The notes under the pieces were generated by a model. The model was not told the origin of the DNA. It worked only from the letters and a program-made list of their open reading frames with translations, and did no database searches. The translations under genes and the position numbers were made by a program. Source: Gammaproteobacteria bacterium (GTDB taxonomy: Bacteria; Pseudomonadota; Gammaproteobacteria; JBCCGL01). From it: a stretch of DNA of 64,000 nt. The stretch's first letter is position 1. Every line of letters begins with the position of its first letter. This document shows positions 29,434 through 47,223 of the stretch, in pieces. The stretch covers positions 96,001-160,000 of the forward strand of contig OZ255836.1 of the NCBI GenBank assembly GCA_965277715.1. Reading direction: 5' to 3'.

Positions 29434-29469
29434 TGCGGGTTCGGTGCGGACACCGAATTTCGATACATA

Positions 29470-29510
29470 ATCCTAAATTCCGCAGTAGATTCAACTGAGG
29501 AATTTAGGAT
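29470..29510. repeat. Inverted repeat hairpin
   Basis: ATCCTAAATTCC-G-CAGT / ACTG-A-GGAATTTAGGAT. Confidence 0.7.
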
Positions 29511-29570
29511 AATTACCATCTGAACCATTAACCCCTTTACCTTTAATAACATCCGGGTATATTGGCAAGT

Positions 29571-29733
29571 ATGAATGACAACATCGCGCACCTACCGGAA
29601 TCCAAACAGGACGAGCTAAGACGTATTGCCGAAGTAGTGCGCAAAGAATGCGATAACGTGGAAATGGTTGTTCTATTTGGCTCCTATGCGCGTGGCGACT
29701 GGAAGGACGGCCCGCACGAACAGGGTCGGGGCC
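29571..29733 (+). pseudogene. MNT-HEPN fusion gene, 5' part (split by composite transposon)
   Basis: MNDNIAHLPESKQDEL...VLFGSYARGDW; rejoins 46496 in frame. Confidence 0.9.
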
Positions 29734-31262
29734 CAATACCGCTACCTCAGGTTTAACCCAATGAATCTTTTAGCCTCTGAGAGGCCTTGATACGAGGTTC
29801 AGTTAACAGTGGGTAGGCTTTTGGTCGTCGTTTAATTGCCCTTGGTTGGGGTGATCGTTTTCTCCTGCCAATTAACGTTGAAGCGATTATCCTTAATAAG
29901 GAAGTGTACGCTTTTTGTATCACACTGGATGTTGAGTGGATGAATTTAATATAAGCAATACCCAGTAGCTGTACCGTTGCCTTAAAACTTATTTGACGTG
30001 CTATTTCACCCTCTGTTTTTGCTGACTCTGCCATGCTACCCCGAATCAGGTTATAAGCCATAAAGGTTGTTGCTATTTCTTTTTCAACCATCTCGGGTGA
30101 ATGGCATCGCAACATATCCATTTTCAAATCTGTTTTAATTGTACGAAAATCCAATTCAACTTTCCAACGTTCCTTATACAGTGTTGAAAGCTCTTTCTTA
30201 GGGTAAGTATCAACCTCCAACAAAGTGCTAACATAGACTGTCCCATCCACTGAAAATTCTCGAACTGTCAGTGTTTTCGGCAATAGATCAAAGTCTGATT
30301 GCGACATCCAAACCGGTTTTCTTTTAGGTTTTTCCCACTCGATAAGATGATCTTTTGCACCAAGCGTTAACCCTGTTTTGTAATCCGCTTTCTTTTGTGC
30401 GTGATTCATTGAGACGAATGCAACCCCTTTCGATTGTAGAGCCGCTAAGACAGCATAAGTACAGTAATAGCGGTCTGCCAGTAATAGATCATTGGCGGTT
30501 AATGACGTCATCAGGGTACTGAATAATGACATTTCCCCTGTTCCCTTTCCTTGATACTCTCCCATTGCATAATCAATAATAGCGCCAGAACTTAAAGAAA
30601 TGAGTCCGACTATTCGAGCAATAGGAAAACCTAAACCCGGTTTTTGAGTCTGTTGCTGGGGGTATTTATGTTGATTTTTCTGGGTATCAGGCATGAGAAC
30701 AGTGGTTCCATCCACAAGCACCACATTATACCCTTTCCATGTCCAAATTTTACCTGCTCTGGCATGTAACGTTGAACCGATTGAACGTACCTCCTGAAGT
30801 ACCCACGACAGAGATAAACGTTGGCGGGCTTTACAGTAAGGACCGCTATTAAAAGAACTTGGAAGCAGGTTTTCCTGTAAACGATCAACTAGCAGACGGG
30901 CGACTGTTTCTTTACAACTGCCATTATCACTTAACACCTGCCAGAGAAATAAACGCAGTGTAACAAGTGGGGTGAATACCCGGTCTCGATAGCTGCCCGA
31001 TAGTTCGCTTAGGTCGTTTAGACGCTTGGAACAGAGTAAATTATTAAAGTCTCCTGTGTTTAACTGAAAAAAAACACGTTTGATCGTTTTAATTTGCTGT
31101 CGGATAGTGAATTTCATAGAATAGGTCAGCGTTAGGTTTTTTGGCGAAGTACTTGTGTGTTTTGTCGCTTACAAGGATACTTCAAAAGGAAACCTAACGT
31201 TACCCATCTATATGACTTTTAACGTTATTTTAGTTCTTCACCAGGCTGAGGTAGCGGTATTG
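29734..31262 (-). mobile_element. IS4-family IS, copy 1 (1529 bp)
   Basis: TIRs CAATACCGCTACCTCAG / CTGAGGTAGCGGTATTG. Confidence 0.95.
29753..31117 (-). CDS. IS4-family transposase
   Basis: VDGT, LADRYY, YKERWKVELDFRTIK. Confidence 0.95.
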   Translation of the reverse strand: MKFTIRQQIKTIKRVFFQLNTGDFNNLLCSKRLNDLSELSGSYRDRVFTPLVTLRLFLWQVLSDNGSCKETVARLLVDRLQENLLPSSFNSGPYCKARQRLSLSWVLQEVRSIGSTLHARAGKIWTWKGYNVVLVDGTTVLMPDTQKNQHKYPQQQTQKPGLGFPIARIVGLISLSSGAIIDYAMGEYQGKGTGEMSLFSTLMTSLTANDLLLADRYYCTYAVLAALQSKGVAFVSMNHAQKKADYKTGLTLGAKDHLIEWEKPKRKPVWMSQSDFDLLPKTLTVREFSVDGTVYVSTLLEVDTYPKKELSTLYKERWKVELDFRTIKTDLKMDMLRCHSPEMVEKEIATTFMAYNLIRGSMAESAKTEGEIARQISFKATVQLLGIAYIKFIHSTSSVIQKAYTSLLRIIASTLIGRRKRSPQPRAIKRRPKAYPLLTEPRIKASQRLKDSLG

Positions 31263-31386
31263 GGGTCGGTGACTGTTGCATCTCAACCCCAGCAGTAGCA
31301 TCCAATTTGTTAACTTGCCCTAAACCCTGTGCCAAGTAGGTGGTCTTGGCGTCGTAAATTTCGTTCTGCCCCAACGGTTTCATCAT
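31263..31386 (-). pseudogene. 5' stub of a gene truncated by the IS
   Basis: AGGTG RBS just after the hlyD stop; MMKPLGQNEIYDAKTTYLAQGLGQVNKLDATAGVEMQQSPTP is open up to the IS end. Confidence 0.45.
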
Positions 31387-31396
31387 GAGCACACCT

Positions 31397-32728
31397 TCAG
31401 CGTTCTCTTAATGCAGAAAGTAAGGTTTCTTTGATTGGTGCAATAAAAAAATCGATCAATGATCTTTGGTCTGTAATGATTTCGACTTGTACGCTCATGC
31501 CAATTTGTACTGTTTGTAAACCATCGTATGTATTAAAAGCTTTTTGACTCAAATTAATGTGGGCAAGATAGAATGATTTACTACCATCCTCTGACTGTAT
31601 AGAATCACTACTCAAGTAGACTAGCTTTCCCGGCAAACTTCCATAACGTGTATAGGGGAAAGCGTCCACCTTGATGCGCACTTTCTGATCGGCGCGTAAG
31701 AACCCAACCTCTCCACTGGGAATCCGAACTTTTGCAATAGGGGACTGACTAGTTGGTACGATAGTAAGCAAAGCATCTCCAGCGTTAACATAGATACCCG
31801 TAGCAGCAACAGACAATTTTTCGACGATACCAGATATCGGATTGAGCAATCGGCTGCTATCCAACTGGGCGACAATGCCTCTATGTTGAGCCTGGAGTTT
31901 CTTTTCCTGTAAATCCAATGCCTGCTGTTGCTCAGCAAATTCAAGCTTAAAGCGCCGAAAAACAGTGGGTATTTTCGCGTTCAATGAAACCATACGAACG
32001 TCCAGTAGCTCTTTGCGCTGGCGGTATTCGATACTGGCAAACCGAGCTTTTTGTAACTCAATAGAACTTTTTGTTATTTCTGCCTTACTTACATAATTTT
32101 TTGCCAGTAAAGCCTCGCGTGCGCTGTGGCTTGCCTGAATTAAGGGTTCTATTTCCTTTGCCTGAAGAGCCTGGGTTTTTGCGTAACGCATTTCAGCTAG
32201 GAGTTCAACTCTCTCTCTCTCCATATTGTCAAGTTGGTCTTTAATAGTGGAGAGGCGCTGGATAATCCAAGCACGCTGAAGTGGCTGTACTGATTCATCT
32301 TCCGGTATTTTTCGGTGAATCTCCACCAAATTAAGCTGTTTAAAATCCTCGAACTCAAAACGATTAACAGCACTATACAAAATCAATTGGGATTGGACAC
32401 TCTGTAGTTCTGCCTCTATTTCACGCAATTGCGCACGTAAGCTACGATCATCCATCTGAATCAGTATCTCACCCTGTTTGATCCGTTGGCCATCATGCAC
32501 TGCCAGCTTTGATACTACACCAGACCGGGCGGCACGGAGGGTTTTTACTTTACCACTGGGAATAATATGCCCTTTAGCTGTAGTAATCACATCAATTGAT
32601 GTAAAAATAGCCATCGTAATCGCAACAATCACAGTGATAATCACCGACACTGGCATAATCGAAGAGCCTGGCAGTATCGGTCGTTGTTGCGTCATTAAAT
32701 GCTCAGGATGGAAATTTAGCTTTGGCAT
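31397..32728 (-). CDS. HlyD-family type I secretion membrane fusion protein
   Basis: AKGHIIPSG, coiled coil, KVDAFPYTRYG, GMSVQVEIITDQRSLIDFFIAP, LRER. Confidence 0.95.
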   Translation of the reverse strand: MPKLNFHPEHLMTQQRPILPGSSIMPVSVIITVIVAITMAIFTSIDVITTAKGHIIPSGKVKTLRAARSGVVSKLAVHDGQRIKQGEILIQMDDRSLRAQLREIEAELQSVQSQLILYSAVNRFEFEDFKQLNLVEIHRKIPEDESVQPLQRAWIIQRLSTIKDQLDNMERERVELLAEMRYAKTQALQAKEIEPLIQASHSAREALLAKNYVSKAEITKSSIELQKARFASIEYRQRKELLDVRMVSLNAKIPTVFRRFKLEFAEQQQALDLQEKKLQAQHRGIVAQLDSSRLLNPISGIVEKLSVAATGIYVNAGDALLTIVPTSQSPIAKVRIPSGEVGFLRADQKVRIKVDAFPYTRYGSLPGKLVYLSSDSIQSEDGSKSFYLAHINLSQKAFNTYDGLQTVQIGMSVQVEIITDQRSLIDFFIAPIKETLLSALRER

Positions 32729-32733
32729 AAGTA

Positions 32734-34485
32734 TCAATCTACCATTGCCAAAATACGCGAAGAAACGCCTGTCTGGTATTGACATAAGCGACTATATACC
32801 CCTTCGTGCTTTATCAAATCCAGGTGTTGGCCTTGCTCAACGATTTCCCCCGCTTGCATAACCACAATACGATCACAGAGACGTGCCAGTGACAAACGGT
32901 GAGTTACGATAATAACCGTTTTTTGCCGCCCTAAAGTCTGCAAGTTATCGATCACTTTCGCCTCAGTTTCATAGTCTAGCGCACTACTCGCCTCGTCTAG
33001 TATCAAAAGCGGTGTATCGGCGGCAATAGCACGCGCCAGCGCAATACGCTGTACTTGGCCGCCGGAAAAGTTATGCCCACCTTCCATCACCGGGCTGTAA
33101 TAGCCTTTCGGCAATGTATCAACAAACTGATCAATGCAGGCGATACGTGCAGCCCTGCGCATTACTTCATCATTTGGTGCGTCACAGGCATAGAGAATAT
33201 TACTGGCAATCGTGCCACTGAAGAGTATATTGCGCTGCAACACATAAGAAACTTGTCCACGAACCGATGCGATATCAAGCGTGCGTATTTCATGACCATC
33301 AAGATAGATCCCTCCTTTATACTCATCGTAAGCCAATGATAAAAGTTTTACCAACGTACTTTTACCTGCGCCTGATTCGCCGAGTAGGCACACGCGTTCG
33401 CCGTGGTGAATCTCCATATTAATATTTTTTAACGCCGATGACGAATGTTCAGGATAAGTAAAAGAAAGCTGCCTGAACTCTATAAGACGCTGAAACTTAT
33501 CTGCCATCCGGTAAGAGGTCTGTGTAGCGCTTTGTTCAATCTGGTGTGCAAGCACAGTATTCAAACGTTCGACAGACAGGCGAAAAGCCAGTATCTCCTC
33601 CCAGATGGAAGCGAGCCGGATAAGCGGACTGGTTACCCGGTCTTTCAGCATATTAAAAGCCACCAGCGCGCCAAGCGTGAGGTTCTGTTCCAACACCAGA
33701 GTAGCGCCAACATACAAAACAAATACCTCGGATACCACTCCAATAAACTCCGAGGTACGTTCCGACCACATGCCTACCTGCGCCAACCTGTACGACTTTC
33801 GCAGACGCTTATCCAGTGTTCTGAAAATACCATCCACTCCAGCGGCCGTTTTATTGCTCGCACGAACGGTTTCAATCCCTTGCAAACACTCGATTACCCA
33901 GGATTGATGTTGTACACCGGCTGCAAAATTTTCCTTTTCGCGATGCTTTAGTGTTTTACCGAATAAAAAATACTGACCCGCATGTAAAGGAACGGTTGCC
34001 AATACTATCAGCGACAGTGGCATGCTCAAAGAAAGCATCACCAGTAAAAAAATGAGCATAAAAAGCAAGTCCACAGCCAGTGACAATACCCAGCTACTGA
34101 GTATGCCGCGAATGGCATCCAATTCTGCCGAGCGCGATACGATCTCACCTACTGGCGTGCGATCAAAATATGATTTTTTGAGTTTAAAGAGGTGGCGATA
34201 AAATACACCGGCTGACTCGCTGCCCATGCCGATTCCAACCCATTGAGACACGCGAAACTGCGCCACTTTCAGCAGCTGTGTCAACACTGCCGTAGTCAAC
34301 AGTATTATCAAGATAACGGTTAAAGTCGCATAACCTTCAGACACCAACACACGGTCAATTACCGCCATAAACGACAATGGTGTCGCTAATGACAGAGTAT
34401 TTAGGACAACGCCAATTAGCGCGGTCCAAGCAAGCAACCGGGCATAGCGACGAAATAGACCAGCAAAGAGGCTTTTGGATCCCAC
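32734..34485 (-). CDS. HlyB-like type I secretion ABC transporter lacking the C39 domain
   Basis: TM domain starts at residue ~15; GESGAGKST, FSGGQVQR, ILDEASSALD; 583 aa. Confidence 0.92.
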   Translation of the reverse strand: MGSKSLFAGLFRRYARLLAWTALIGVVLNTLSLATPLSFMAVIDRVLVSEGYATLTVILIILLTTAVLTQLLKVAQFRVSQWVGIGMGSESAGVFYRHLFKLKKSYFDRTPVGEIVSRSAELDAIRGILSSWVLSLAVDLLFMLIFLLVMLSLSMPLSLIVLATVPLHAGQYFLFGKTLKHREKENFAAGVQHQSWVIECLQGIETVRASNKTAAGVDGIFRTLDKRLRKSYRLAQVGMWSERTSEFIGVVSEVFVLYVGATLVLEQNLTLGALVAFNMLKDRVTSPLIRLASIWEEILAFRLSVERLNTVLAHQIEQSATQTSYRMADKFQRLIEFRQLSFTYPEHSSSALKNINMEIHHGERVCLLGESGAGKSTLVKLLSLAYDEYKGGIYLDGHEIRTLDIASVRGQVSYVLQRNILFSGTIASNILYACDAPNDEVMRRAARIACIDQFVDTLPKGYYSPVMEGGHNFSGGQVQRIALARAIAADTPLLILDEASSALDYETEAKVIDNLQTLGRQKTVIIVTHRLSLARLCDRIVVMQAGEIVEQGQHLDLIKHEGVYSRLCQYQTGVSSRILAMVD

Positions 34486-34508
34486 TTAGCAAGCAACCGT
34501 CGGTAGAA

Positions 34509-37277
34509 TTAAGGCAACCATATAAAGCGCGACTGCGCACTCCGCTTGCCCACCAGAACCTGGAGCACACGTTGTAATGCATCGGGAGCAGGTGCCACTG
34601 TTCTGGCTGCTATGTTAAATATATAGCGAGGTGTAAATCCGGTTATTGTCGTTGAGGCTACTTCTTGCGCAACTATAGCCGGATTTTTATAAAGCCTCTT
34701 CAACCTGTTGAGTTGATTTTTTTTCCATTGTGCTAACTGCGTTGGTTCTGGGGTTGTTTTCGCTAATTTCCTCAATAAGATGTCGATAGTATCAATGATC
34801 TCGTCGACATTTCCTGGGTCGCAGGCAAAGCGGATTATCAGTGTATAAACATCCTGCTCCGATGCAGCACCATCTATAGTAGTGTTAATGGCGTACACAA
34901 GGCTTCGTTGCTCGCGTATCTCAGTTAATAGCACACCCTGAAGCCAGAGCCTGATAAAATCCATTTTATCTGAATTCATATCAGGCAAGGCTGGCTTTTC
35001 GATCTCATAGCGTAACATGACACTGGCTTCTTTTTGTCCGCTACCACTCACCCGGATATCTGCATTATTTTTCGGTCGCGGAAAAAAGCGAACGCTGTCT
35101 TTTTCAATCATGTTGGTAACAACTGGCAATGTTGCGAGACTCCGCAAAACTGCTGGTCGGAGGGTTGGCTCCAGAATATCGCCGACGATGGCTATACGAT
35201 AATTTTGCGCACCCTTGAAATAACGTTGATAAACAGTGCTCACAGCTTGCATATCAATCGAGTTTAGCTCGTCTAGTGTCATCACACGCAAGGCCGCATC
35301 GCGGTTGAAAAGTTCAACTCCCAGTGCATCCTGCCAAGGCTTGGCTGGATTTCGTAGAAACCGCTCAAGGTCGGCACGGTTTTTCGCTTTGTAGTGTCGC
35401 CACGCAGTTGAATCGATCCGCGCTTCGGTTAGAGCGATATGTAGTAGCCGTAGGAGTGTATCGATATCTTCGCTTTTGCCGCTGCCGTTAATACCCCGGT
35501 TAAAGTAGGCAAAGTAAGGCTGTAACCCGGCATTATGATTGTTTAGCCAGTCATTGAATTCGGCCGCGTTTTTATCACGTAAACCACTGGCAGCAATGGT
35601 ATCCAACGCCAACCTCGCGTGCAGGGTTTGAGCTTCTGACAATCGATTCAGCCCACCTGCACCCGCTAGGCTGTAGTGCACTCTGCCGGGGGACCCACCG
35701 CTATATTGGTGCCATACGACAATACCATTACTCAAAGTCCACTCGGTCACCCCTCCAGGCAGTACACGCGTACCAACAATACTACCCTTCACAGCCGGAG
35801 AAATAGACCAGTCTTCGCTCGCTTGTATGGGCACCTGCGCAGCGGAAAATCGGGTTTTATCGACGCTTAGCCACCGTTCAACATGCGCCTGCTCTGTCGG
35901 ATCGGGCCTATCGGCGTGTACCAACAGGACGTGTGGATGACTATCCATAACCTGTGAGACTGCGTTATCGATATCCTCAATCCGCACATTTGCCAATTGT
36001 TCTTCTATTAGCGAGTACCATTGTCTGGCACGAACGATGGGGACACCATAGAGAAAGTTGTGCATGGCGGCGTCGGCCAGGCTGTGCGCGGAATCCCATT
36101 TCACGCGTTGCTCCGCCAAGTAAGCAGTCCGCCAATTATCCAGTTCGATCTGTGTAATGCCTTGCGACAATAGTTGCGCTCGCTCTTCCGCTAGAATGCG
36201 TGTTGCGGTTTCAAAATTTCCCGACGACAATATCGCCTTGAGCGAAACACGCAGCACCTCTGGCGATTCTTGCCGCCACTGGGTATAAAAGTTGCCCACC
36301 GCGCCCTCGGTCGCCTGCAATCGATGATTCAGGCGTCGTCTGAGTATCTTTAAGCCTGCCTGCCAAAGCGCAGCCCTGTAGAGTTTGTCGTGCGTTGTAG
36401 GTCGTGCCATGCGACTAAAGTGATCGAATGATACAGACTCCTCATGCGTGTGTTTATCATTGATAATGAGTGTTTCCGGAAGAGTGTCGATATTGATATT
36501 GTATACTCCAGGGCTGCCGGATAGCTGGGGTGCCCAGTCGGAGAATTTTTCTTTTATCATCTCGATTATTTTGGAAGTGCTGGAAATATCGCCTGTTACG
36601 ATTATTGCGGCATTGTCGGGGCGATACCAACGCTGGTAGTAAGCCCGTAGTGTGCTTGGCTTGGCCGATTCGATACTTTCTAGGGTACCGATGGGATAGC
36701 GCTCAGCGTAGCGACTGTTGCGGTACAGTGCCTGCCAGCGTGCATCATTATCTTCTCGTAAGCGCCACTCCTCACGCACAATCGGTATCTCGCTGGCAAG
36801 CACGTCGGGGGGGAAGCGGATATACCTTGCCCATTGAGTCAACAGATCAATTGCGAAGGCTATATCGCTGTCAGTCGGATCTTCAAGCCTCAGCCAGTAG
36901 GTTGTATGGTCAAAATAAGTGGCGGCATTACTGTGCTGGATAAACGAGATGCCCCGTTTTTTCAACTGTTCGAACAACTGTTGATTAGGGTAATCACGAG
37001 TTGAGTTAAATGCCATATGCTCAACGATATGAGCATGGCCTTGTTGCTCATCCGTTTCGTGTAATGAACCAGATTTTATTACAAGACGAGCTTCCACTAC
37101 TCTAACACTAGCACTTGAATATTTGTTTTTTAAGACTGTAATCGTCATTTTATTGCGAAGAACTCCGGAGTAATCTCCGGCGAACGCCTCTTTGTTTGCT
37201 TTAAATAATGCGAAGGAAAAGATCGTTAGGATGAAAAGTAAAAAAGTAAAAAATTTGATATTTATTTTTAGTTTCAT
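34509..37277 (-). CDS. M16 (PqqL/pitrilysin-like) zinc protease, exported
   Basis: Signal/TM N-terminus; GHAHIVEHMAF (HxxEH), NAATYFDHT, EEWR, RYPIG, YQRWYRPDN, IREQRSLVY. Confidence 0.92.
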   Translation of the reverse strand: MKLKINIKFFTFLLFILTIFSFALFKANKEAFAGDYSGVLRNKMTITVLKNKYSSASVRVVEARLVIKSGSLHETDEQQGHAHIVEHMAFNSTRDYPNQQLFEQLKKRGISFIQHSNAATYFDHTTYWLRLEDPTDSDIAFAIDLLTQWARYIRFPPDVLASEIPIVREEWRLREDNDARWQALYRNSRYAERYPIGTLESIESAKPSTLRAYYQRWYRPDNAAIIVTGDISSTSKIIEMIKEKFSDWAPQLSGSPGVYNINIDTLPETLIINDKHTHEESVSFDHFSRMARPTTHDKLYRAALWQAGLKILRRRLNHRLQATEGAVGNFYTQWRQESPEVLRVSLKAILSSGNFETATRILAEERAQLLSQGITQIELDNWRTAYLAEQRVKWDSAHSLADAAMHNFLYGVPIVRARQWYSLIEEQLANVRIEDIDNAVSQVMDSHPHVLLVHADRPDPTEQAHVERWLSVDKTRFSAAQVPIQASEDWSISPAVKGSIVGTRVLPGGVTEWTLSNGIVVWHQYSGGSPGRVHYSLAGAGGLNRLSEAQTLHARLALDTIAASGLRDKNAAEFNDWLNNHNAGLQPYFAYFNRGINGSGKSEDIDTLLRLLHIALTEARIDSTAWRHYKAKNRADLERFLRNPAKPWQDALGVELFNRDAALRVMTLDELNSIDMQAVSTVYQRYFKGAQNYRIAIVGDILEPTLRPAVLRSLATLPVVTNMIEKDSVRFFPRPKNNADIRVSGSGQKEASVMLRYEIEKPALPDMNSDKMDFIRLWLQGVLLTEIREQRSLVYAINTTIDGAASEQDVYTLIIRFACDPGNVDEIIDTIDILLRKLAKTTPEPTQLAQWKKNQLNRLKRLYKNPAIVAQEVASTTITGFTPRYIFNIAARTVAPAPDALQRVLQVLVGKRSAQSRFIWLP

Positions 37278-37340
37278 GCGACAATTTACTGTATTTTTTA
37301 ATGAAAAACCAATTGTTTAAAAATTAAAATTATTTCCTGA

Positions 37341-38582
37341 TCATCGAATAAAAACAATATTAGGTATCTCCTCTGTCCTGGATATAGCCCTGATTAATTC
37401 GCGGCATGAGTCTTCCTTTGAGCAGTCATATCTGTTGCTGATAAATATTGTAATCATGTCAGAAGTTGAAAAATATGCAGACATTATAACTTGCGAAGCC
37501 AAGTAAGCCTGAGCAAAAATCCGAGGCGGCAACTTGGAAAGGTTGGAACGATCTACAGCGCTTGAGCTAACCTCAAAACCACCTAAGTCGGATTGAATAT
37601 CAGAAATCCAGTTGTTAATCGAATTTAATAAGTCGTTGTTGGAGGATTTCTGCTGTTCCGTATCGATAATATTTGCAAAATGCAAAGATGTGTTTTTTAA
37701 ATCTTTTTTCAATATTTCGATAATTTTTAATCTGTGTCGCTGCGCTCCATCCCAGATAAGGTAATTTCTAGCATCAATCTCTTGTTGTTTGTCCTGAATC
37801 TCTATTGAATTAAATTTCAATTTTTGACGGCAAGCAAGACAGACTGACTGATAATAATCAGCCTCCGAAGGTGAAAACCATTTCAACTGTTTAAAGCCAG
37901 CGGCACATAATCTCTGAGACAGTTCCGCAGGTGTGATAGCTCGCCGTTTCATGGAGATAATTTTCGCGGGTGCCATGGACTTGTCTGGAACCACGAAATA
38001 ACTGCAATCGTGTATTGGAGATCTCGGTGAGCCTTGCCAAATTCGTCTTTGAAAATACAGTATGTTGCCTTTTTCACGACTAACTGGAGCAACATTTGAT
38101 AGGGCAATATCCGGCTCCTCAATCATTAGTTTTCCATAGTCATATATTCCAATAACAGCTATGCCATCTGGTTTTAAACAGTTAAATATCTTTTCTATAC
38201 AGGTTTCCAACTCTGTATCTTCAAGAAAATGAGTGATAAAACTTGAGAGAACAAAAGCAATATCATATTTCTCTTTAAATTCTCTTTCTAAAAAATCTGT
38301 GCACTCTAACTGGATATTTAGATTCTGTTTTTTTGCAAGCTGTCTCGCTACTGCCAAACTCTTTTTACTAAAATCGATCCCTGTGACTTTATGGCCCATC
38401 TGTGCAAGGGCAACGGTGACCTGCCCCGTTCCACATCCAACTTCTAAAATTCGTTGCCCGGCAGGTAAATCTGAGAATATACGAAAGTACAATCTATGTA
38501 CCTCATCAATACCTCCATTTTCTTGGCGGTGCATTAAGTCGTAGTCCTCTGACCAGTCATCATATATATTTTTATACGACAT
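37341..38582 (-). CDS. Class I SAM methyltransferase with C-terminal degenerate QueC-like domain
   Basis: ILEVGCGTG, GIDFS, LKPDG; C-terminal ~150 aa aligns by eye with ORF 39608-40270. Confidence 0.85.
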   Translation of the reverse strand: MSYKNIYDDWSEDYDLMHRQENGGIDEVHRLYFRIFSDLPAGQRILEVGCGTGQVTVALAQMGHKVTGIDFSKKSLAVARQLAKKQNLNIQLECTDFLEREFKEKYDIAFVLSSFITHFLEDTELETCIEKIFNCLKPDGIAVIGIYDYGKLMIEEPDIALSNVAPVSREKGNILYFQRRIWQGSPRSPIHDCSYFVVPDKSMAPAKIISMKRRAITPAELSQRLCAAGFKQLKWFSPSEADYYQSVCLACRQKLKFNSIEIQDKQQEIDARNYLIWDGAQRHRLKIIEILKKDLKNTSLHFANIIDTEQQKSSNNDLLNSINNWISDIQSDLGGFEVSSSAVDRSNLSKLPPRIFAQAYLASQVIMSAYFSTSDMITIFISNRYDCSKEDSCRELIRAISRTEEIPNIVFIR

Positions 38583-39027
38583 GTCGTTTTGTCCCAAAGA
38601 TAGTGTCCCATAGACGAAAATACAGATCATAGTTTACTGAACAGTCCTGATGATGAATAAGGTGGTAGCGCCCCATCGCAAGTCCAGGTATGTTAATTCG
38701 TGGGTTATGATCAACGATGCCTTCGGCAAGAATGAAACCATCAATGTAATATAATACAGCAATCGGCCACGCCTGTGGCCACACCACCATTATGGCTAGT
38801 AAAGGTAAAATTTCAGTTATCCACTGATCTGTGGTAGCTTTCCAATCACCAAACCACCCAATAAGATTAAGCCAACTGAACTCACAGTCACCGGCATAAT
38901 TTACCACATGATGGCTTTTGTGAAACTTCCACAGAAAACTAAAACTGTGTGCTGCTCTATGCGTCCAGTAAATGATAAATGTAAAGAGAAAAAAACAGAT
39001 CGTTAAATTCAAAATGTATGAAATCAT
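38572..39027 (-). CDS. Fatty acid hydroxylase/sterol desaturase family protein
   Basis: His boxes YWTHRAAH, FHKSHH, DHN, YHLIHH; NY...WDTIFGT. Confidence 0.88.
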   Translation of the reverse strand: MISYILNLTICFFLFTFIIYWTHRAAHSFSFLWKFHKSHHVVNYAGDCEFSWLNLIGWFGDWKATTDQWITEILPLLAIMVVWPQAWPIAVLYYIDGFILAEGIVDHNPRINIPGLAMGRYHLIHHQDCSVNYDLYFRLWDTIFGTKRHVV

Positions 39028-39036
39028 AGTAGTATA

Positions 39037-39621
39037 TCAACCCCACTTACACCAAGTATCAGTAAAAACCACTTCGCAGCTATGGTGCCTGGTTAAAATA
39101 TTTCCGCGATTGAAATCCAAAGCATAATTGTAATTTCTAGCGCGTTCTCCCAGTGAGGTAGCGATATTTTTAAGTTCGGAATTTGAAGGAGGGTAATATT
39201 TAGGCCGGTCATCCAGTGATGCGTAGGCATAATTGATCGCCAAGTTTGTCTCTCCCCAAAAGGAACCATCTTTAGGTGCTGGAAATAAGCGTTCCATAAT
39301 AGTCATTGCCGAGATCCCATCATCATGATGGCTTAGGATGTTGGGAAGATATTTGCAATTGTTTTTTTTGGCAAAATCTACAAATCTAGTAAAAGCCTCA
39401 CAGCTTATGCCTATTCGGACTACCGTTCTTTCATCTAATCTGTCGAAAACAATAGCATCGTCCCCTCTACCAATTTCAGAAAAAGATTGCTTGTATATAT
39501 CTTCCAGCTGTGAGGCAGCAACAAGCCAAGCTGGATGTAGTGAAGTCTTCTGTGTTGCCTCGTCGTTAGGTAGTAGCCTGGTGGTGTTATCACAAGTAGA
39601 AATTAGTTTACTGGAGTGCAT
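39037..39621 (-). CDS. Minimal protein-kinase-like fold protein
   Basis: IGRGDDAIVF Gly-loop, IMERL hinge, LDFNRGNIL catalytic loop, VFTD. Confidence 0.65.
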   Translation of the reverse strand: MHSSKLISTCDNTTRLLPNDEATQKTSLHPAWLVAASQLEDIYKQSFSEIGRGDDAIVFDRLDERTVVRIGISCEAFTRFVDFAKKNNCKYLPNILSHHDDGISAMTIMERLFPAPKDGSFWGETNLAINYAYASLDDRPKYYPPSNSELKNIATSLGERARNYNYALDFNRGNILTRHHSCEVVFTDTWCKWG

Positions 39622-40270
39622 CTTTTATCCTTTCATTATGAGAGACAGAACTTAAAGTGATACATTCAGGACATCTCTGGCAACTAGAGAATGTATCTAC
39701 TTCATCATCATAGGAAGGGTTTCTGCAACTTGCAGTAAATTTAAAGATATCATCTGGCAAATAATTCACCTCTTCCTGTTTTGTTGGGGGATAAGGCCAC
39801 AAAAAACACTGTGGATGATCTTCGTTCCCCCAGATCAACCTTAAAATACGCACTGTGTAAGCGCGAAGAAACTGATAAATCTCGCTACCAGGATTCCAAC
39901 TCTTGTCTTCATCACTGTTCATGCTCAATAAAATGCGATCTTTACGGCAGAAAGAATGTGAAAGCGCTGAGTGTGCAGAAAAAAACATGGCGGTGGAGGT
40001 GTCTCTCGCAAAGTTCCTGAAACTTGTTAAGTTCACACTACTGCTGTCAAAGTGAAACTCCCTATATCTACTTAATAAGATAGGATGCATAAAGGAAATT
40101 GCCCGATCTTCGTAGGGTGCTGTATATGTCTTTTTCTTTCCGGTATCATCCAAAGCATATCGACTAATGTGGTGAGCATAAACATCGTCGTTAGTTTCGC
40201 GGAGAAGGCGAACCAATCCATAAGTACTGTCCAGTCCACCGCTCCACATTACAAGCGTTTTACGTTTCAT
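39608..40270 (-). CDS. QueC-like PP-loop ATP pyrophosphatase
   Basis: VMWSGGLDST PP-loop; C-terminal SC...CQRCPEC Zn site. Confidence 0.8.
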   Translation of the reverse strand: MKRKTLVMWSGGLDSTYGLVRLLRETNDDVYAHHISRYALDDTGKKKTYTAPYEDRAISFMHPILLSRYREFHFDSSSVNLTSFRNFARDTSTAMFFSAHSALSHSFCRKDRILLSMNSDEDKSWNPGSEIYQFLRAYTVRILRLIWGNEDHPQCFLWPYPPTKQEEVNYLPDDIFKFTASCRNPSYDDEVDTFSSCQRCPECITLSSVSHNERIKDALQ

Positions 40271-40452
40271 TTCCTGAGCTCCTCATTTATACAACTCGAT
40301 TAGGTTAAATAGCACTTGACATAGCTTTTCTGCCACGATTTGTGAAAACACAATCGAAAAGTATGCGTGAGACTAATTTGACTTGCTTTTTACCCTAGCA
40401 TATTCGTCTATATAGTGATGTTTTTACAGTAATTAAGTATTGCGATGAAGCA

Positions 40453-40647
40453 TCAGCGTGTGCTAAGCCAATTGCTCAGAGGGTTAATTATCATATAAAA
40501 TACAACCAAATAAATGAGAAAAAATGTAACTAACTCCACATAGGACAAGCTTTTTTCTGACATGAAAAGGACCAAAATAAAATAAATAACCGTAGAAATA
40601 ATCGTACTAAGAAGTGACATATATATATTTTTTCTTTTGATAAACAT
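40453..40647 (-). CDS. Small 2-TM membrane protein, candidate immunity protein
   Basis: GGAG RBS; 64 aa, two hydrophobic helices; follows the precursor. Confidence 0.6.
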   Translation of the reverse strand: MFIKRKNIYMSLLSTIISTVIYFILVLFMSEKSLSYVELVTFFLIYLVVFYMIINPLSNWLSTR

Positions 40648-40951
40648 TTTGATTCTCCAATTTTCATTTGGCTTTAATTATAGATGCGGAATAATCATTA
40701 AATTTAATTTTATGCAACTATTTTACACCTGAAAGCCAGGTTAACTAAAAACTAAAAATATTTAGTAACATAGCTATAAATAATGTCTTGCTTATATTTA
40801 TATTACTTAGTTTTCCGTATTATAAACTAGTAAAAAATTTCTGCATAACTAGAGACACTAACAAGAGTTTAAGGGTTAACCTATTCATTTTCAGGCGAAC
40901 GATTAGCTGTCTATTCACTAATATCCTGTTCTTGAAAAAAATTATCGCAAA

Positions 40952-40971
40952 GGGCATCTAAATTGATGCCC
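40952..40971 (-). terminator. Stem-loop after precursor gene
   Basis: GGGCATC-N6-GATGCCC followed by T-rich sequence on the minus strand. Confidence 0.5.
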
Positions 40972-41025
40972 ATTACCAGAAATACCCAAACTTAGTGCTT
41001 AAAAAAACGCCTCATTAATCCGCCA

Positions 41026-41364
41026 TTATTGACCCCCGCCACCATAACCGTTGCCGTTACGACCAGCACCGGCATAGCCGCGGGGATTACTAAGGCCAGA
41101 GGGATCACCAAAACAATTATCTGATCCGAGAGCGCCGACTACACCACCGCTCACCCCGCCAGCCACCGCGCCTGATAAAGCACCAGGTCCGCACCCGACG
41201 CCACCAGCAAGCGAACCTGCGGCACAGCCACCGGCTGCACCACCAATGGCTCCCTGCGCAGCAGCTGTTCCAATGTCACCGGCGCAGCTTCCACCACCTC
41301 CACCGCCCCCACCAAAACTGGTGGGTTCAAAAAGATCATCAAAACGAACATTTTCTAATTTCAT
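41026..41364 (-). CDS. Gly-rich bacteriocin/microcin-like RiPP precursor
   Basis: GAGGAG RBS; leader-like MKLENVRFDDLFEPTSFGG; poly-Gly; GxxxG-rich hydrophobic core; 4 Cys; Gly/Asn/Tyr tail. Confidence 0.85.
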   Translation of the reverse strand: MKLENVRFDDLFEPTSFGGGGGGGGSCAGDIGTAAAQGAIGGAAGGCAAGSLAGGVGCGPGALSGAVAGGVSGGVVGALGSDNCFGDPSGLSNPRGYAGAGRNGNGYGGGGQ

Positions 41365-41519
41365 TTACTCTACTCCTCAAAAATTACGAAGTGATTTGTA
41401 ATGCACCTCATTTAACTGGCCGAGAACAACCCGACCACCTTATTGAGTGTGATGGAAAAAACCACACTCAGCAATTGTCAACATTGCTGACAACTACATT
41501 CCTTACACTGAAGATATAT

Positions 41520-42656
41520 TTAATATCTCCAGAAATAACTGACCGACATGTTATGACTGTCAAGCGCATGCGCCTGATAAAACCAGCCAACGGGTTGAAT
41601 AAATAAATCACCAGGGTTCAGTATTATCGATAAGCATTTACTAGATTTCGACAATGGAAACAGTTGATAATCAGGTATCTCAGGTTTAAACCAACACGTC
41701 TGATAACTGTTATATCCCAGCATAGGGTAGAGCAGTTCTGATTGATCAGCTGAATATAAATCCAGTCGTTTACGCCCAATTACCTGACCCAGAAATTTGT
41801 GAAAGGGGTTGCGATGTAGATCTGATACTAGTAGGCGTGTCGGTATTATCCCCAACGATAACTTTGGAGGAGTGAAATCACCGTGATCAAAGTACGGTGG
41901 CCCAAAATCGGCAAACATTTCCACAGGCAAATTGACATTTTCGACATAAAGTTTCGAGAAAACATTGACCGCAACCTTCCGGGAGCTAGGTTTCAAACTC
42001 TTAAGCTCTTTGGCGAGTTCCCGAATAGTCTGCTGCGAAAACGTTGTGTGGAAGGGAATAACAACATCAGCATAGCGCTCAACTAAACATTCAAACGTCC
42101 AGTTCCTATATGGAACAATATTTTGTATTCCGTGAACTATCGTTGGCATACCTGCTTCCATCTGCTCTAGCACTTGCATTTGCGTTGGGCTTTCCAAATT
42201 AGTGGGCTGTTCAAGCTTTGCGTACCCCTTCAACATGTGTGTTTTTTCCGCACAACGCAGTCGCCTTTGCGTCTGTATCGACGGTCTCAAACAGGCTTTT
42301 GATAAATGTTTGACGAGATTAAGATCCCCCGAGAACTCCACTGCACCAACAATATCAGGCGCACACCAGTCAAAATACTCGCATTCATCAACAATTTGCC
42401 TGAGTGTTGTGATCGGCATACCAATCTCGGCTGCCACAGGAATACCCTGCTCCAGTTTCGACATAATACGCAGATGCTGCTGGTCAAATATGGCGAAAAA
42501 AGTGCTCTCAGGATATTCAAATATCCGAAACTGAACTGCCCCTCGTATACCGTAAGGGTTTTCAAAACCCTCCTGCAATAATTGGGCAAAAAGTGATATA
42601 GCTTCAACATTTGACTGCTGCACTTGTTCATGAGATAGATGACTCATGCATGACAC
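41520..42656 (-). CDS. SCP2-like plus JmjC/cupin domain protein
   Basis: VEFSGDLNL (SCP2-like); LHRNP...QVIGRKR..LY, LNPGDLFIQPVGWF...MSVSYFW (JmjC). Confidence 0.8.
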   Translation of the reverse strand: MSCMSHLSHEQVQQSNVEAISLFAQLLQEGFENPYGIRGAVQFRIFEYPESTFFAIFDQQHLRIMSKLEQGIPVAAEIGMPITTLRQIVDECEYFDWCAPDIVGAVEFSGDLNLVKHLSKACLRPSIQTQRRLRCAEKTHMLKGYAKLEQPTNLESPTQMQVLEQMEAGMPTIVHGIQNIVPYRNWTFECLVERYADVVIPFHTTFSQQTIRELAKELKSLKPSSRKVAVNVFSKLYVENVNLPVEMFADFGPPYFDHGDFTPPKLSLGIIPTRLLVSDLHRNPFHKFLGQVIGRKRLDLYSADQSELLYPMLGYNSYQTCWFKPEIPDYQLFPLSKSSKCLSIILNPGDLFIQPVGWFYQAHALDSHNMSVSYFWRY

Positions 42657-43093
42657 TCGCGGGAAAATGTACGAACTTTACTGCCTGTCCAGCGATTGAC
42701 CTTGCGCACTGAACCGTCTGAATTTCGGCGTAGGCTACTTGCAACCTGATTGGGGAATACGTTATTAGTCATGTCGCGTACGATGTCCTTGATGTTGCCG
42801 TGAGGCGTGATCCAGTCGTTAAAAAACAGCCTGTCACCACACTGCCATTCGCCACTGCAGAGTGAACGGCCCGTGATACAAATCGCTTGCTCAATACTGG
42901 TTGATAGCCACGCCCAGGTGACCATAGCGGTTGGCAAACCATCGCCATTTAAATAGATTCGTGCCTGATTAACGTTAAGCGCAGGCAATATTTCGGTGCG
43001 CATATACTTCCCTAGTTGAAATCGGCTGTGGTAACTGGATTGCGCCAGCAATTCGAGGGCATAGGCGGTGCTAGTGTAGTAGTCGAGGATCAC
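42644..43093 (-). CDS. HlyC/RtxC-family toxin-activating acyltransferase
   Basis: SSYH, ILPAL..NQ, VTWAWL, EWQCGDRLFFNDWITPHG, FP....SLRR. Confidence 0.9.
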   Translation of the reverse strand: MILDYYTSTAYALELLAQSSYHSRFQLGKYMRTEILPALNVNQARIYLNGDGLPTAMVTWAWLSTSIEQAICITGRSLCSGEWQCGDRLFFNDWITPHGNIKDIVRDMTNNVFPNQVASSLRRNSDGSVRKVNRWTGSKVRTFSRECHA

Positions 43094-44250
43094 CAGATCA
43101 CCTGCTTTCTTTGTCCACCATGCCGATCAACAAACATTGCCGACACGACCTTGTTACCAAACTGTTTACGCAGTGATTTAAGCAAACTTAAATGATCACC
43201 GAATGGTGCCGATAGTTTTGTTACATATAATCTATCCTGCGGATATCCACCAACTTCCCAAGCTATATAGCCGACAGGTTTACCTTTGTCAAAATGGATA
43301 AAAATCCTATTTTCGAATAGTTTTTCGCGAGCACTCAAGTAGTATTCATATATGGTCTTTTCTGGCTCTCCATGTGCATAATCCGTATCCAGCAGCAACA
43401 TTGCACCCAAACGTCGATAAATTTCACAAGTAGATATATCACCCACTGATTGTAGGGGGAAGTCCGGCAAATAATTTTCCCGATTACAACTGATTGATGC
43501 ATAGGGAATTATATTGCCCAAAAGTTCACTTAAGGCTTGCCCCGTGTATAGAGACCAAAGACTGGCAGCGTTACATTCTCTGTTCAGAACAATCGCGGCA
43601 ACACGTGCTAAGGGATAGTTCCAACGATATAAGTAAGTTTTGCCCGCCGATTTTAGTGCACTACGCAAACATTGTGCATCATCCAACAGATAAGCCCTAT
43701 TATCCCTCTCCCAGACAATACACATACTAGCATATAGTGCAGGCTGGTCATTTTTGACATAATCCATTAGTGCCTGTTCACCAATAAATGCACAAATTTC
43801 ACGATCAACTGGTGAAGCTACTGCAATTGGAGACACAATAGACTGTACTGCATGCGAAAATTCATGCGCCAGATTGAGTAGATCTCTTGCACTACCTCGA
43901 TAAGGGCAATAAATACGGGGGCGAGAAGTATCCGAATGATCAGTAAAAGGCTGCTTTATCACAGTAGCCTCACAACCGTATTCAACCAATGTCGAAGATT
44001 GCACATTTTGAATAGCTGCCGATTGATGTGGAAACCGTGCCGCAAGCGTAGTTGCCACAAAATCCAAAGCATCCGGCATGCGAATATTGGTAAGCTGAGC
44101 TGTGTTTTGAGTACTATAGTTTTCTTTTTCCTGCTCTTGAACGAGGCTCGCTGCTTCCGCTAGAAGATCCACACAATCTAGAACACTCAAACCCGTAAGC
44201 GACAACCAATCCTCAAGTGTAAATCGCTTTCCGTTATTTTCATCATTCAT
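43090..44250 (-). CDS. Minimal M3/gluzincin-like metallopeptidase fused to a divergent HlyC-like domain
   Basis: PRIYCPYRGSARDLLNLAHEFSHAVQ...REICAFIGE; C-terminal GKPVGYIAW...LSAPFGD...LRKQF. Confidence 0.75.
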   Translation of the reverse strand: MNDENNGKRFTLEDWLSLTGLSVLDCVDLLAEAASLVQEQEKENYSTQNTAQLTNIRMPDALDFVATTLAARFPHQSAAIQNVQSSTLVEYGCEATVIKQPFTDHSDTSRPRIYCPYRGSARDLLNLAHEFSHAVQSIVSPIAVASPVDREICAFIGEQALMDYVKNDQPALYASMCIVWERDNRAYLLDDAQCLRSALKSAGKTYLYRWNYPLARVAAIVLNRECNAASLWSLYTGQALSELLGNIIPYASISCNRENYLPDFPLQSVGDISTCEIYRRLGAMLLLDTDYAHGEPEKTIYEYYLSAREKLFENRIFIHFDKGKPVGYIAWEVGGYPQDRLYVTKLSAPFGDHLSLLKSLRKQFGNKVVSAMFVDRHGGQRKQVIW

Positions 44251-44589
44251 AGCAATCCTAACTTCACTAAAATTCCAAATAAACCTTCCCCAAAATATTA
44301 GATTCGTTAATCGATTTTGTCAACAGTCAGTTTTGTTTAATAGCAATTTTCACAGAAAAATAAATTTAAATAATTGATTTTATGAGATAATTTTTTAACG
44401 CAACAACAAAATCAACAGTTTATACGATCATGGCGTGTCAAAAAAACAGCTTGACGGTTTTAGCCTATCTTTGACAATTTATGCCTTATTTATTCACATT
44501 ACTATGCATGCTAGTTGGTTCCTGTGGGTTAAAGGGTGCTTGTGCTGGCAACAAATAACCTACCATAGAACCAGCTTTTTTTGTAATTA

Positions 44590-44623
44590 CTTCAAATGCT
44601 TACAGCATAAGGAAGTGCCATTC
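44590..44623 (-). repeat. Orphan MITE/IS end
   Basis: Reverse complement of the first 34 bp of the MITE at 44736, with 1 mismatch. Confidence 0.75.
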
Positions 44624-44735
44624 GAGTATGAGATCATGATTACAAATCACTAGGAAATAATGAGGTAATTATTCCTTGCAGATCATATAAAATACCACTG
44701 CTGTCCCGTTAAGAGGAAATAAAGAGATCTGAATA

Positions 44736-44944
44736 GAATGGCACTTCCTTATGCTGTAAGTATTTGAAAGTATTGGTATTATGTGCTTGGTTCAGATAAC
44801 TTGGCATATGGTTCTTGAAAGCAATATTTGTAAAACTATCCCGGTTATCATTGGCGGCAACTTTCAAAATATCATTTTTGTTTCTTAGAAAAAATAAATA
44901 AACTCTTTACTATCAGTTGCTTACGCCTTAAGGAAGTGCCATTC
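44736..44944. mobile_element. 209-bp MITE with IS4-like TIRs
   Basis: 16-bp TIR GAATGGCACTTCCTTA / TAAGGAAGTGCCATTC; flanks AGATCTGAATA / AGGTCTGAATA (11 bp, 1 mismatch). Confidence 0.8.
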
Positions 44945-44955
44945 AGGTCTGAATA

Positions 44956-46484
44956 CAATACCGCTACCTCAGGTTTAACCCAATGAATCTTTTAGCCTCT
45001 GAGAGGCCTTGATACGAGGTTCAGTTAACAGTGGGTAGGCTTTTGGTCGTCGTTTAATTGCCCTTGGTTGGGGTGATCGTTTTCTCCTGCCAATTAACGT
45101 TGAAGCGATTATCCTTAATAAGGAAGTGTACGCTTTTTGTATCATACTGGATGTTGAATGGATGAATTTAATATGAGCAATACCCAGTAGCTGTACCGTT
45201 GCCTTAAAACTTATTTGACGTGCTACTTCACCCTCTGTTTTTGCTGACTCTGCCATGCTACCCCGAATCAGGTTATAAGCCATAAAGGTTGTTGCTATTT
45301 CTTTTTCAACCATATCGGGTGAATGGCATCGCAACATATCCATTTTCAAATCTATTTTAATTGTACGAAAATCCAATTCAACTTTCCAACGTTCCTTATA
45401 CAGTGTTGAAAGCTCTTTCTTAGGGTAAGTATCAACCTCCAACAAAGTGCTAACATAGACTGTCCCATCCACTGAAAATTCTCGAACTGTCAGTGTTTTC
45501 GGCAATAGATCAAAGTCTGATTGCGACATCCAAACCGGTTTTCTTTTAGGTTTTTCCCACTCGATAAGATGATCTTTTGCACCAAGCGTTAACCCTGTTT
45601 TGTAATCCGCTTTCTTTTGTGCGTGATTCATTGAGACGAATGCAACCCCTTTCGATTGTAGAGCCGCTAAGACAGCATAAGTACAGTAATAGCGGTCTGC
45701 CAGTAACAGATCATTGGCGGTTAATGACGTCATCAGGGTACTGAATAATGACATTTCCCCTGTTCCCTTTCCTTGATACTCTCCCATTGCATAATCAATA
45801 ATAGCGCCAGAACTTAAAGAAATGAGTCCGACTATTCGAGCAATAGGAAAACCTAAACCCGGTTTTTGAGTCTGTTGCTGGGGGTATTTATGTTGATTTT
45901 TCTGGGTATCAGGCATGAGAACAGTGGTTCCATCCACAAGCACCACATTATACCCTTTCCATGTCCAAATTTTACCTGCTCTGGCATGTAACGTTGAACC
46001 GATTGAACGTACCTCCTGAAGTACCCACGACAGAGATAAACGTTGACGGGCTTTACAGTAAGGACCGCTATTAAAAGAACTTGGAAGCAGGTTTTCATGT
46101 AAACGATCAACTAGCAGACGGGCGACTGTTTCTTTACAACTGCCATTATCACTTAACACCTGCCAGAGAAATAAACGCAGTGTAACAAGTGGGGTGAATA
46201 CCCGGTCTCGATAGCTGCCCGATAGTTCGCTTAGGTCGTTTAGACGCTTGGAACAGAGTAAATTATTAAAGTCTCCTGTGTTTAACTGAAAAAAAACACG
46301 TTTGATCGTTTTAATTTGCTGTCGGATAGTGAATTTCATAGAATAGGTCAGCGTTAGGTTTTTTGGCGAAGTACTTGTGTGTTTTGTCGCTTACAAGGAT
46401 ACTTCAAAAGGAAACCTAACGTTACCCATCTATATGACTTTTAACGTTATTTTAGTTCTTCACCAAGCTGAGGTAGCGGTATTG
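44956..46484 (-). mobile_element. IS4-family IS, copy 2 (1529 bp)
   Basis: Same TIRs; near-identical to copy 1. Confidence 0.95.
44975..46339 (-). CDS. IS4-family transposase
   Basis: 454 aa; a few substitutions relative to copy 1. Confidence 0.95.
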   Translation of the reverse strand: MKFTIRQQIKTIKRVFFQLNTGDFNNLLCSKRLNDLSELSGSYRDRVFTPLVTLRLFLWQVLSDNGSCKETVARLLVDRLHENLLPSSFNSGPYCKARQRLSLSWVLQEVRSIGSTLHARAGKIWTWKGYNVVLVDGTTVLMPDTQKNQHKYPQQQTQKPGLGFPIARIVGLISLSSGAIIDYAMGEYQGKGTGEMSLFSTLMTSLTANDLLLADRYYCTYAVLAALQSKGVAFVSMNHAQKKADYKTGLTLGAKDHLIEWEKPKRKPVWMSQSDFDLLPKTLTVREFSVDGTVYVSTLLEVDTYPKKELSTLYKERWKVELDFRTIKIDLKMDMLRCHSPDMVEKEIATTFMAYNLIRGSMAESAKTEGEVARQISFKATVQLLGIAHIKFIHSTSSMIQKAYTSLLRIIASTLIGRRKRSPQPRAIKRRPKAYPLLTEPRIKASQRLKDSLG

Positions 46485-46495
46485 GGGTCGGGGCC

Positions 46496-47202: not shown

Positions 47203-47223
47203 TATATTGTCGATTGCATTTAT

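Follow-up and report, generated by a model that had tools for sequence, protein, structure and literature searches.

The interrupted gene and its two insertion sequence copies

The 64,000-nt stretch of gammaproteobacterial DNA analysed here (positions 96,001 to 160,000 of contig OZ255836.1, called the window below) contains a 16,751-bp unit at positions 29734-46484 that consists of two direct copies of one insertion sequence (IS) placed around 13.7 kb of unrelated genes, the cargo. The unit lies within a gene of the MNT-HEPN family. Copy 1 (29734-31262) and copy 2 (44956-46484) are each 1529 bp long and both are on the minus strand; their direct orientation was found in a repeat search and again by direct alignment. 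Each copy has a 454-amino-acid (aa) transposase open reading frame (ORF), at 29753-31117 in copy 1 and at 44975-46339 in copy 2, and each is bounded by perfect 17-bp terminal inverted repeats, CAATACCGCTACCTCAG. This motif occurs five times in the window, compared to zero times expected from 100 shuffles, and the fifth match belongs to a third copy of the IS. The third copy (58209-59561, plus strand) is inverted, 1353 bp long and 99% identical, has lost about 176 bp, including the start of the transposase and one end, and is nested within another IS. The window holds, then, at least three copies of this IS.

Alignment of copies 1 and 2 revealed 10 substitutions in 1529 bp (99.3% identity), and the two transposases, both intact, differ at six of 454 residues. 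The third copy covers nine of the 10 variable sites; it agrees with copy 2 at six of them and with copy 1 at three, and it has seven private changes. Because the three copies are about equally distant from each other, in a star-like pattern, the flanking pair was not made during the integration event, nor is it a fresh duplication. The 90% cluster of the transposase contains eight sequences, seven of them on a 4,294,796-bp contig and one on a 2486-nt contig; one of the seven is a truncated form of 394 aa that matches the truncated ORF of the third copy.

Directly outside the outer end of copy 1 (29723-29733) and directly outside the outer end of copy 2 (46485-46495) is the same 11-bp sequence, GGGTCGGGGCC. 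The MNT-HEPN gene is cut at this sequence. Its 5' fragment (29571-29733, plus strand) consists of 54 codons and one additional nucleotide, aligns with the N-termini of intact homologues and is 100% identical to residues 1-54 of a recorded protein, P0121. Its 3' fragment (46496-47202, plus strand), which has the Pfam domains HEPN and Polbeta, is 100% identical to residues 52-289 of P0121. When the two fragments are joined, they form 870 nt in frame that encode 289 aa, and the product is identical to P0121 over its whole length. The 234-aa ORF of the 3' fragment has 226 relatives at E <= 1e-5 (403 candidates scored), mostly 273-290 aa long and containing both Polbeta and HEPN. Alignment of the two fragments with six intact homologues is gap-free, with a single arginine from the split codon between them (HEQGRG-R-MLIHKK); the six homologues read EQGRGR[LM] at this point and are collinear with the rejoined ORF. 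The 11 bp GGGTCGGGGCC encode the conserved QGRGR motif of what is one of several MNT-HEPN paralogues.

As one would expect of a composite transposon, the two outer 17-bp ends of the unit are both perfect, and one 11-bp duplication surrounds the whole unit, the removal of which restores the target gene. The original prediction had described the direct 1529-bp pair around the cluster, its two intact transposases, the perfect 11-bp duplication and the restored 289-aa ORF; all of these were reproduced, with every coordinate correct. A cargo native to this site with two independent IS insertions beside it is excluded, as the halves of one ORF lie outside the unit. In annotation, the fragments at 29571-29733 and 46496-47202 should be treated as one broken gene.

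P0121 probably resides on the same replicon as the 234-aa fragment of the window (P0122) and the transposase P0124, namely the 4,294,796-bp contig, and so the genome would hold an intact twin of the target gene. Further MNT-HEPN paralogues are 93% (P0001), 89% (P0002) and 62% identical. The gene for the twin P0121 is outside the window; within the window the only relative is 34% identical. No relative of the MNT-HEPN fragment was found in genome contigs (20 pattern matches, none confirmed). The flanking MshE gene gave 80 loci; the best of them (L001, 76% aa identity) is syntenic only on the far side of MshE and offers no empty site. As a separate observation, the relative within the window is an MNT-HEPN-type ORF at 9944-10822, about 34% identical to the interrupted one, and this genome carries an expanded set of the family: at least four closer paralogues are on record from outside the window.

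The cargo genes

The cargo was annotated from Pfam and NCBIfam profiles and from the translations; all of its genes are on the minus strand. Next to copy 1 is an HlyD-family adaptor gene (31397-32785; TIGR01843, 246 bits with a cut-off of 209, and Pfam HlyD_3), followed by a gene for an ABC permease/ATPase of the type I secretion kind that lacks an N-terminal peptidase domain (32734-34485; Pfam ABC_membrane and ABC_tran). The latter aligns with TIGR01846 from profile position 128 on, with a score under the cut-off. An M16 (insulinase-type) peptidase of 922 aa (34509-37277; Pfam Peptidase_M16 and Peptidase_M16_C) is followed by an S-adenosylmethionine methyltransferase (37341-38630) and a fatty-acid-hydroxylase-family protein (38572-39027), both assigned by Pfam. 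Two ORFs come next with no family hit, one of 194 aa (39037-39621) and one of 220 aa (39608-40270). The translation of the second has an SGGLDS motif, a putative PP-loop.

Further along are a glycine-rich ORF of 112 aa (41026-41364), noticed in the translations and matching nothing in Pfam or NCBIfam, a Cupin_8 protein (41520-42656), an HlyC-family acyltransferase (42644-43093) and a 386-aa protein with an HlyC-like C-terminal stretch (43090-44250), the last three identified by Pfam. For the 386-aa protein, just two relatives (36% and 26% identical) were found beside its own record, among 5032 candidates scored from 5.8 billion proteins. The 112-aa ORF is a candidate precursor peptide. Its position near the two HlyC-family acyltransferase genes (42644-44250) is an unusual pairing. 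Judged from these gene families, the cargo may encode a system for a modified, possibly acylated, exported peptide. The combination of HlyC-type acyltransferases, a glycine-rich peptide, an M16 peptidase and type I export is rare.

A new member of the IS4 family

The transposase scores 215.3 bits against the NCBIfam model for IS4 family transposases (NF033592, cut-off 115), while the IS701, IS1634 and IS5 models give scores far under their cut-offs. Pfam identifies a DDE_Tnp_1 domain. The YREK signature YKERWKVELDFRTIK at residue 314 fits Y(2)R(3)E(6)K, and all of the 16 transposases that were aligned share D136, D215 and E321, which are spaced by 79 and 106 residues in a single ORF. From their motif contexts (VDGTT, ADRYY and WKVELDF) these three are predicted to be the catalytic residues. 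The IS4 family is described as having the signature Y(2)R(3)E(6)K and a D(60-110)D(100-150)E spacing, and Table 1 of the same review lists the IS4 subgroup with lengths of 1400-1650 bp, ends of the form -AATR...WTW and direct repeats of 10-13 bp (PMC2266710). The ends of the IS described here agree with AATR (CAATAC) and agree only partly with WTW, as positions 14-16 read TCA; the ends of close relatives, TAATACTGCTTACTTAAG, fit the subgroup pattern completely. The original assignment to IS4 is well founded on the model score, the signature, the spacing and the length of 1529 bp.

Outside its own 90% cluster the nearest transposase is 73% identical. The closest plasmid transposase is 43% identical and all 606 plasmid records are below 60%; the IS DNA itself has no near match in plasmids. 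It was also not found in the one genome searched for it (G001), and among 60 relatives of that genome the transposase has distant matches only, in five, the best at 41%. Because the nearest sequence outside the cluster is at 73% and the plasmid sequences are at 43%, the IS is a new, previously unnamed member of the IS4 subgroup, within a very large family.

Target preference and the 11-bp duplication in relatives

The 11-bp habit was judged from relatives, since this exact IS was not available as a complete single copy with its two flanks. A related IS in another genome (L081, transposase 41% identical) has an 11-bp duplication, GGGTCAGTGTA, and an IS on a Piscirickettsia plasmid (L089, 43%) has a 10-bp repeat; for an Aeromonas locus (L088), neither the ends nor a repeat could be called. 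A scan of metagenome contigs driven by alignment provided 80 loci with transposases 49-68% identical; a scan of such contigs with a single protein gave 56 pattern matches, none of which was confirmed. A strict screen asked for agreement of the ends at no fewer than 13 of 18 positions and for a perfect repeat of 8 bp or longer; eight of the 80 loci passed it, seven with 11-bp repeats and one with a 10-bp repeat. In a motif-anchored pass, the two termini and 13 nt or more of flank were present at 41 of the 80 loci. Seven of these have perfect 11-bp repeats, one a perfect 10-bp repeat, two have one mismatch and four have two mismatches.

Of the 11-nt flanks of these 41 loci, 20 on the left and 17 on the right start with G[GA]GTC (tallied by eye), and many end in GAC[CT]C. 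The target of the clade is thus a near-palindromic 11 bp, with the consensus GGGTCNGACCC. Thirteen of the 63,990 11-mers of the window match this consensus at 8 of its 10 specified positions, and two of the thirteen are the duplication itself. The original prediction had taken GGGTCGG at the inner flank of copy 1 as a hint of target preference; GGGTCAGTGTA in L081 and the G[GA]GTC bias in the 41 metagenome loci lend it support. Because the clade prefers G[GA]GTC-type targets, the inner flank of copy 1, GGGTCGGTGAC (31263-31273), resembles the outer repeat, with nine of 11 positions alike. Rather than a decayed outer repeat, it is another target-like site, which we read as the surviving half of an earlier duplication made by copy 1 itself. 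Because the clade is target-specific, identical outer repeats by themselves count for less than 4^-11 would imply, and the restoration of the ORF is the stronger argument.

Two other matters concern the flanks. GGGTCGG was also considered as a part of the IS, and this was ruled out: in the metagenome runs described below, IS copies at other places read on from TATTG into GGTTACG (run X2) and from TATTG into GTGCTAG (run X6), and the ends of relatives start with [TC]AATAC. In addition, some of the metagenome loci (L112, L115, L117 and L121; L134, L151 and L162) have identical flanks that recur across contigs, which suggests insertion into repeated host sequence, and three metagenome loci share a left arm, tttcaatc, ahead of the duplication.

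Some elements of the IS4 subgroup are noted for a "spectacular apparent insertion specificity" (PMC2266710), and the clade described here is also strongly specific. The two cases differ in one respect, namely that the account in PMC2266710 places the target arms outside of the duplication, whereas the bias observed here is inside the duplicated 11 bp.

The inner junction of copy 2

Between the cargo and copy 2 is a 209-bp element (44736-44944) that resembles a miniature inverted-repeat transposable element (MITE). It has terminal inverted repeats of 37 nt with ends of the type found in L081, the related IS4-subgroup element, and it is flanked by AGATCTGAATA (44725-44735) and AGGTCTGAATA (44945-44955), which match at 10 of 11 positions. 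Its inverted-repeat motif was found three times in the window, with 0.56 expected, and three of 100 shuffles reached three, so that the count by itself is weak; it is the 37-nt arms and the 10/11 flanking repeat that carry the case. The inner end of copy 2 stands directly against AGGTCTGAATA, the right-hand repeat of the MITE. Copy 2 therefore occupies a site that had been duplicated earlier by a related insertion. The same habit is seen in the metagenome locus L167, where another IS copy ends in front of the repeat. The MITE/L081 end type also occurs as a solo end at 44592-44623, 113 bp upstream of the MITE-like element.

Related sequences in sponge metagenomes

Over the right flank of the unit (46485-49990, 3.5 kb), runs of organism A share 0.98-1.00 of the words and three runs from other sponge studies (X1, X2 and X3) share 0.65-0.70. 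Contigs of X1, X2, X3 and X6 were compared with positions 28500-48400; X5 and X9, with small shares, were left out. All of these contigs are short-read assemblies. Parts of the cargo without cover in X1-X3 were not counted as evidence unless a contig joined across them, and joints with a shorter side of fewer than 31 letters are weak and may be repeats. Four joints fall into this group, among them 29466 to 29509 (25 letters), 29508 to 35537 (25 letters, X6) and 37323 to 44696 (30 letters, X1).

The target was found uninterrupted in one contig each of X1, X2 and X3. These contigs join 29722 to 46485 with 11 shared letters and a shorter side of 61. The X6 contigs do not list this joint. X6, a run like the source of the window, holds the insertion: its contigs match all of the unique segments with no other letters, and one of them (record 21) starts 25 letters inside copy 1 and continues into the cargo. 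The depths of the joint contigs relative to flank contigs are 1355 versus 553-712 in X1, 53.5 versus 21-23 in X3 and 6.5 versus 6-10 in X2. These depths would be consistent with two uninterrupted copies in X1 and in X3, although contig depth is a poor measure.

X1 and X3 also have contigs that resemble the cargo. The one in X1 is 13.7 kb and matches from 31264, and the one in X3 is 15.6 kb and matches from 31486; neither has an IS in front. Instead, the match is preceded by 54 letters like 29455-29508, which comprise a 42-nt hairpin and 12 nt. Both contigs have the internal joints 32459 to 32813 (also present in X2) and 33170 to 34345, and X2 and X3 have the joint 39306 to 44608. As a result of these joints, the export genes would be interrupted and the acyltransferase half of the cluster would be missing. 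The cargo-like pieces have about 0.2-1.0% other letters than the window and the flank pieces about 1.4-2.0%. In our interpretation, the cargo-like locus of X1-X3 is a shortened relative of the cluster, situated elsewhere in sister populations; possibly it is a donor-type locus in which the insertion site of copy 1 is unoccupied.

In X6, the flank contigs (28500-29213 and 47076-48400) have depths of 410-426 and the cargo contigs (31238-44575) depths of 257-288. A mixed population could account for this gap, and so could a second copy of part of the cargo.

Two minor observations were also made on these contigs. The X2 and X3 joint from 39306 to 44608 ends within the solo end at 44592-44623, and a 328-nt piece of X6 (35537-35864), with a depth of 345, is weakly joined to the hairpin element.

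How the insertion may have arisen

We consider it probable, with moderate confidence, that 29734-46484 is a composite transposon that moved as one unit by transposition. Copies 1 and 2 would each have inserted beside the cluster at an earlier time, at target-like sites represented by GGGTCGGTGAC on the left and by AGGTCTGAATA, from the MITE duplication, on the right. The transposase would then have brought together the two outer ends, one from copy 1 and one from copy 2, which are the same pair of ends as in a single IS. A single cut-and-paste step would have carried everything between these ends into the 11-bp target, and the staggered cut would have duplicated those 11 bp. The move in one step, the activity of the transposases and the order of the events are inferred. 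PMC2266710 gives cut-and-paste as the mechanism of IS231A and implies it for IS10 and IS50.

Several points weigh against transposition of the whole unit. No second insertion site of the same unit was found, the cargo-like loci of X1-X3 being shortened and without copy 1 at their left edge, and so movement of the unit was not observed. In the original prediction the cluster appeared recently mobile; the perfect repeat and the absence of any amino acid difference from the intact paralogue are the grounds for this, and not a move that was observed. Textbook composite transposons of the IS4 family carry inverted rather than direct IS copies. Short-read contigs cannot span a 1.5-kb IS, and the long-range order rests on the deposited assembly alone. 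Among the relatives, 27 of the 41 loci have 11-nt flanks that differ at three or more positions; we attribute, without proof, these unequal but target-like flanks to chimeric assemblies or to recombination between IS copies. Furthermore, since the clade is strongly target-specific, two independent insertions could share similar flanks, as the 9/11 inner flank of copy 1 shows.

X6, which has the insertion, has an uninterrupted form of the target as well, in a contig that departs from the window sequence at 29737 and whose next 15 letters are those of 46500-46514. This contig ends 19 letters past the repeat, whereas the contigs of X1-X3 run 50 letters past it. The end of the X6 contig suggests a merge with the IS junction in a 31-letter word graph, and the longer contigs of X1-X3 would suggest that no IS junction is present there. 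However, in all of the runs the uninterrupted form may come from the twin gene P0121 and not from an empty allele. With regard to the check proposed originally, a search of relatives for the empty site or a single-IS allele, an uninterrupted target is present in X1-X3, with the twin as a possible source, and a single-IS allele was not seen in these three runs.

Homologous recombination is possible, although we regard it as less likely than not to be the explanation. The MNT-HEPN gene would first have received a single IS, which made the 11-bp duplication. Recombination within this resident copy would later have integrated either an IS-cargo-IS segment or a circle made of the cargo and one IS, derived from the same strain or from a sister strain. 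The original caveat that recombination into a pre-existing IS gives the same structure still stands, as the outcome would be exactly what is observed. The genome is IS-rich (seven distinct transposase sequences on the large contig and three copies in the window), and the lower divergence of the cargo than of the flanks from X1-X3 would fit a recent exchange of cargo between strains. However, recombination needs three events and transposition needs one. The absence of a single-IS allele of the site in X1-X3 also speaks against recombination, weakly, since contigs drop rare variants.

Transposition of the unit could also be part of a larger picture, which we offer as speculation. An active shuttle would keep a very rare cluster for peptide lipidation and export alive in a population of sponge symbionts: an older chromosomal copy would be decaying by deletions in sister populations (X1-X3), an intact IS-flanked copy would have jumped into a target that encodes QGRGR, and the expanded MNT-HEPN family would provide landing pads for the IS clade.

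It is unlikely that the structure is an artefact of assembly or of mixed haplotypes, with the cargo or an IS misplaced or with an empty allele appearing as the "paralogue" P0121. The depth gap in X6 would fit a mixed sample, P0121 is identical to the rejoined ORF, and the IS is too long for short contigs to bridge. Against this, the record is a single 4.29-Mb contig, the copies differ at 10 positions by which long reads would be anchored, the X6 contigs fit the unique segments without any other letters and one of them spans the edge of copy 1 into the cargo, and the existence of true paralogues (P0001 and P0002) indicates that duplication in the MNT-HEPN family is real.

Least likely is a replicative cointegrate or an IS26-type translocatable unit, with one IS copy made during integration; direct orientation is the product of such events, but copies made in this way would be identical, and here 10 of 1529 bases and six of 454 residues differ, to about the degree that a third copy does, and the transposase is not of the IS6 family but of the IS4 family, in which the studied members move by cut-and-paste (PMC2266710).

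Comparison with known systems

In Tn5 and Tn10, the two IS copies are inverted, whereas those of the unit described here are direct. The systems are alike in that two IS4-family copies would mobilise the DNA between them by means of their outer ends. They differ in subgroup, IS10 and IS50 in the one case and IS4 in the other, and in cargo, a resistance gene there and a peptide biosynthesis and export cluster here. IS10R and IS50R are both described as parts of composite transposons, and the duplications listed in Table 1 of PMC2266710 are 9 bp for IS10 and 8-9 bp for IS50, compared to 11 bp in this unit.

In the composite transposon Tnces, the whole cereulide cluster of Bacillus weihenstephanensis is situated between two IS copies (PMC4057527); this is a nonribosomal peptide synthetase cluster in a Firmicute. 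The enterocin cluster of a sponge-derived Streptomyces is likewise flanked by IS elements. Its movement is only proposed in the account given in PMC13500778, whereas here the insertion site, the duplication and the restored gene document the insertion. Our literature search found that IS-flanked clusters have already been described and found nothing on this element. HlyC is unmentioned in the literature examined, which is no proof that clusters with HlyC-type genes are undescribed.

What is new is the IS, the cargo and a well-documented insertion; composite transposons are textbook knowledge, and the understanding of their mechanism is unchanged by these results. Biosynthetic clusters flanked by IS elements are often named composite transposons from the flanking IS alone. 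Here the insertion itself is documented, by the 11-bp duplication, the restored gene, the identical intact paralogue and the uninterrupted sequence in other populations. The locus provides a concrete route by which a rare peptide cluster could be moved among the sponge-associated bacteria of one population. In addition, a new element of the IS4 subgroup is defined, which points to a strongly target-specific clade with a near-palindromic 11-bp target.

Other repeats in the window

The hairpin element mentioned above (29467-29508, 42 nt, CCTAAATTC...GAATTTAGG) occurs once in the window. In the runs, several different sequences follow it, and a variant without it was seen in all four runs, through the weak joint from 29466 to 29509. 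It looks like a small, multi-copy palindromic repeat.

A second type of IS is present in two copies, one at 21581-23103, with a 437-aa DDE_Tnp_1 ORF at 21583-22896, and one in two parts at 55624-55963 and 59562-60672. A nest of 3.6 kb interrupts the second copy and takes the place of 83 bp of it. This nest contains an IS4-like transposase gene (56662-58113; Nterm_IS4 and DDE_Tnp_1) in addition to the truncated third copy of the IS that flanks the cargo. At the edge of this second IS type, 60445-60672, are two tandem units of 114 nt that are 96% alike, and a single unit that is 67% identical to them is located at 23007-23120.

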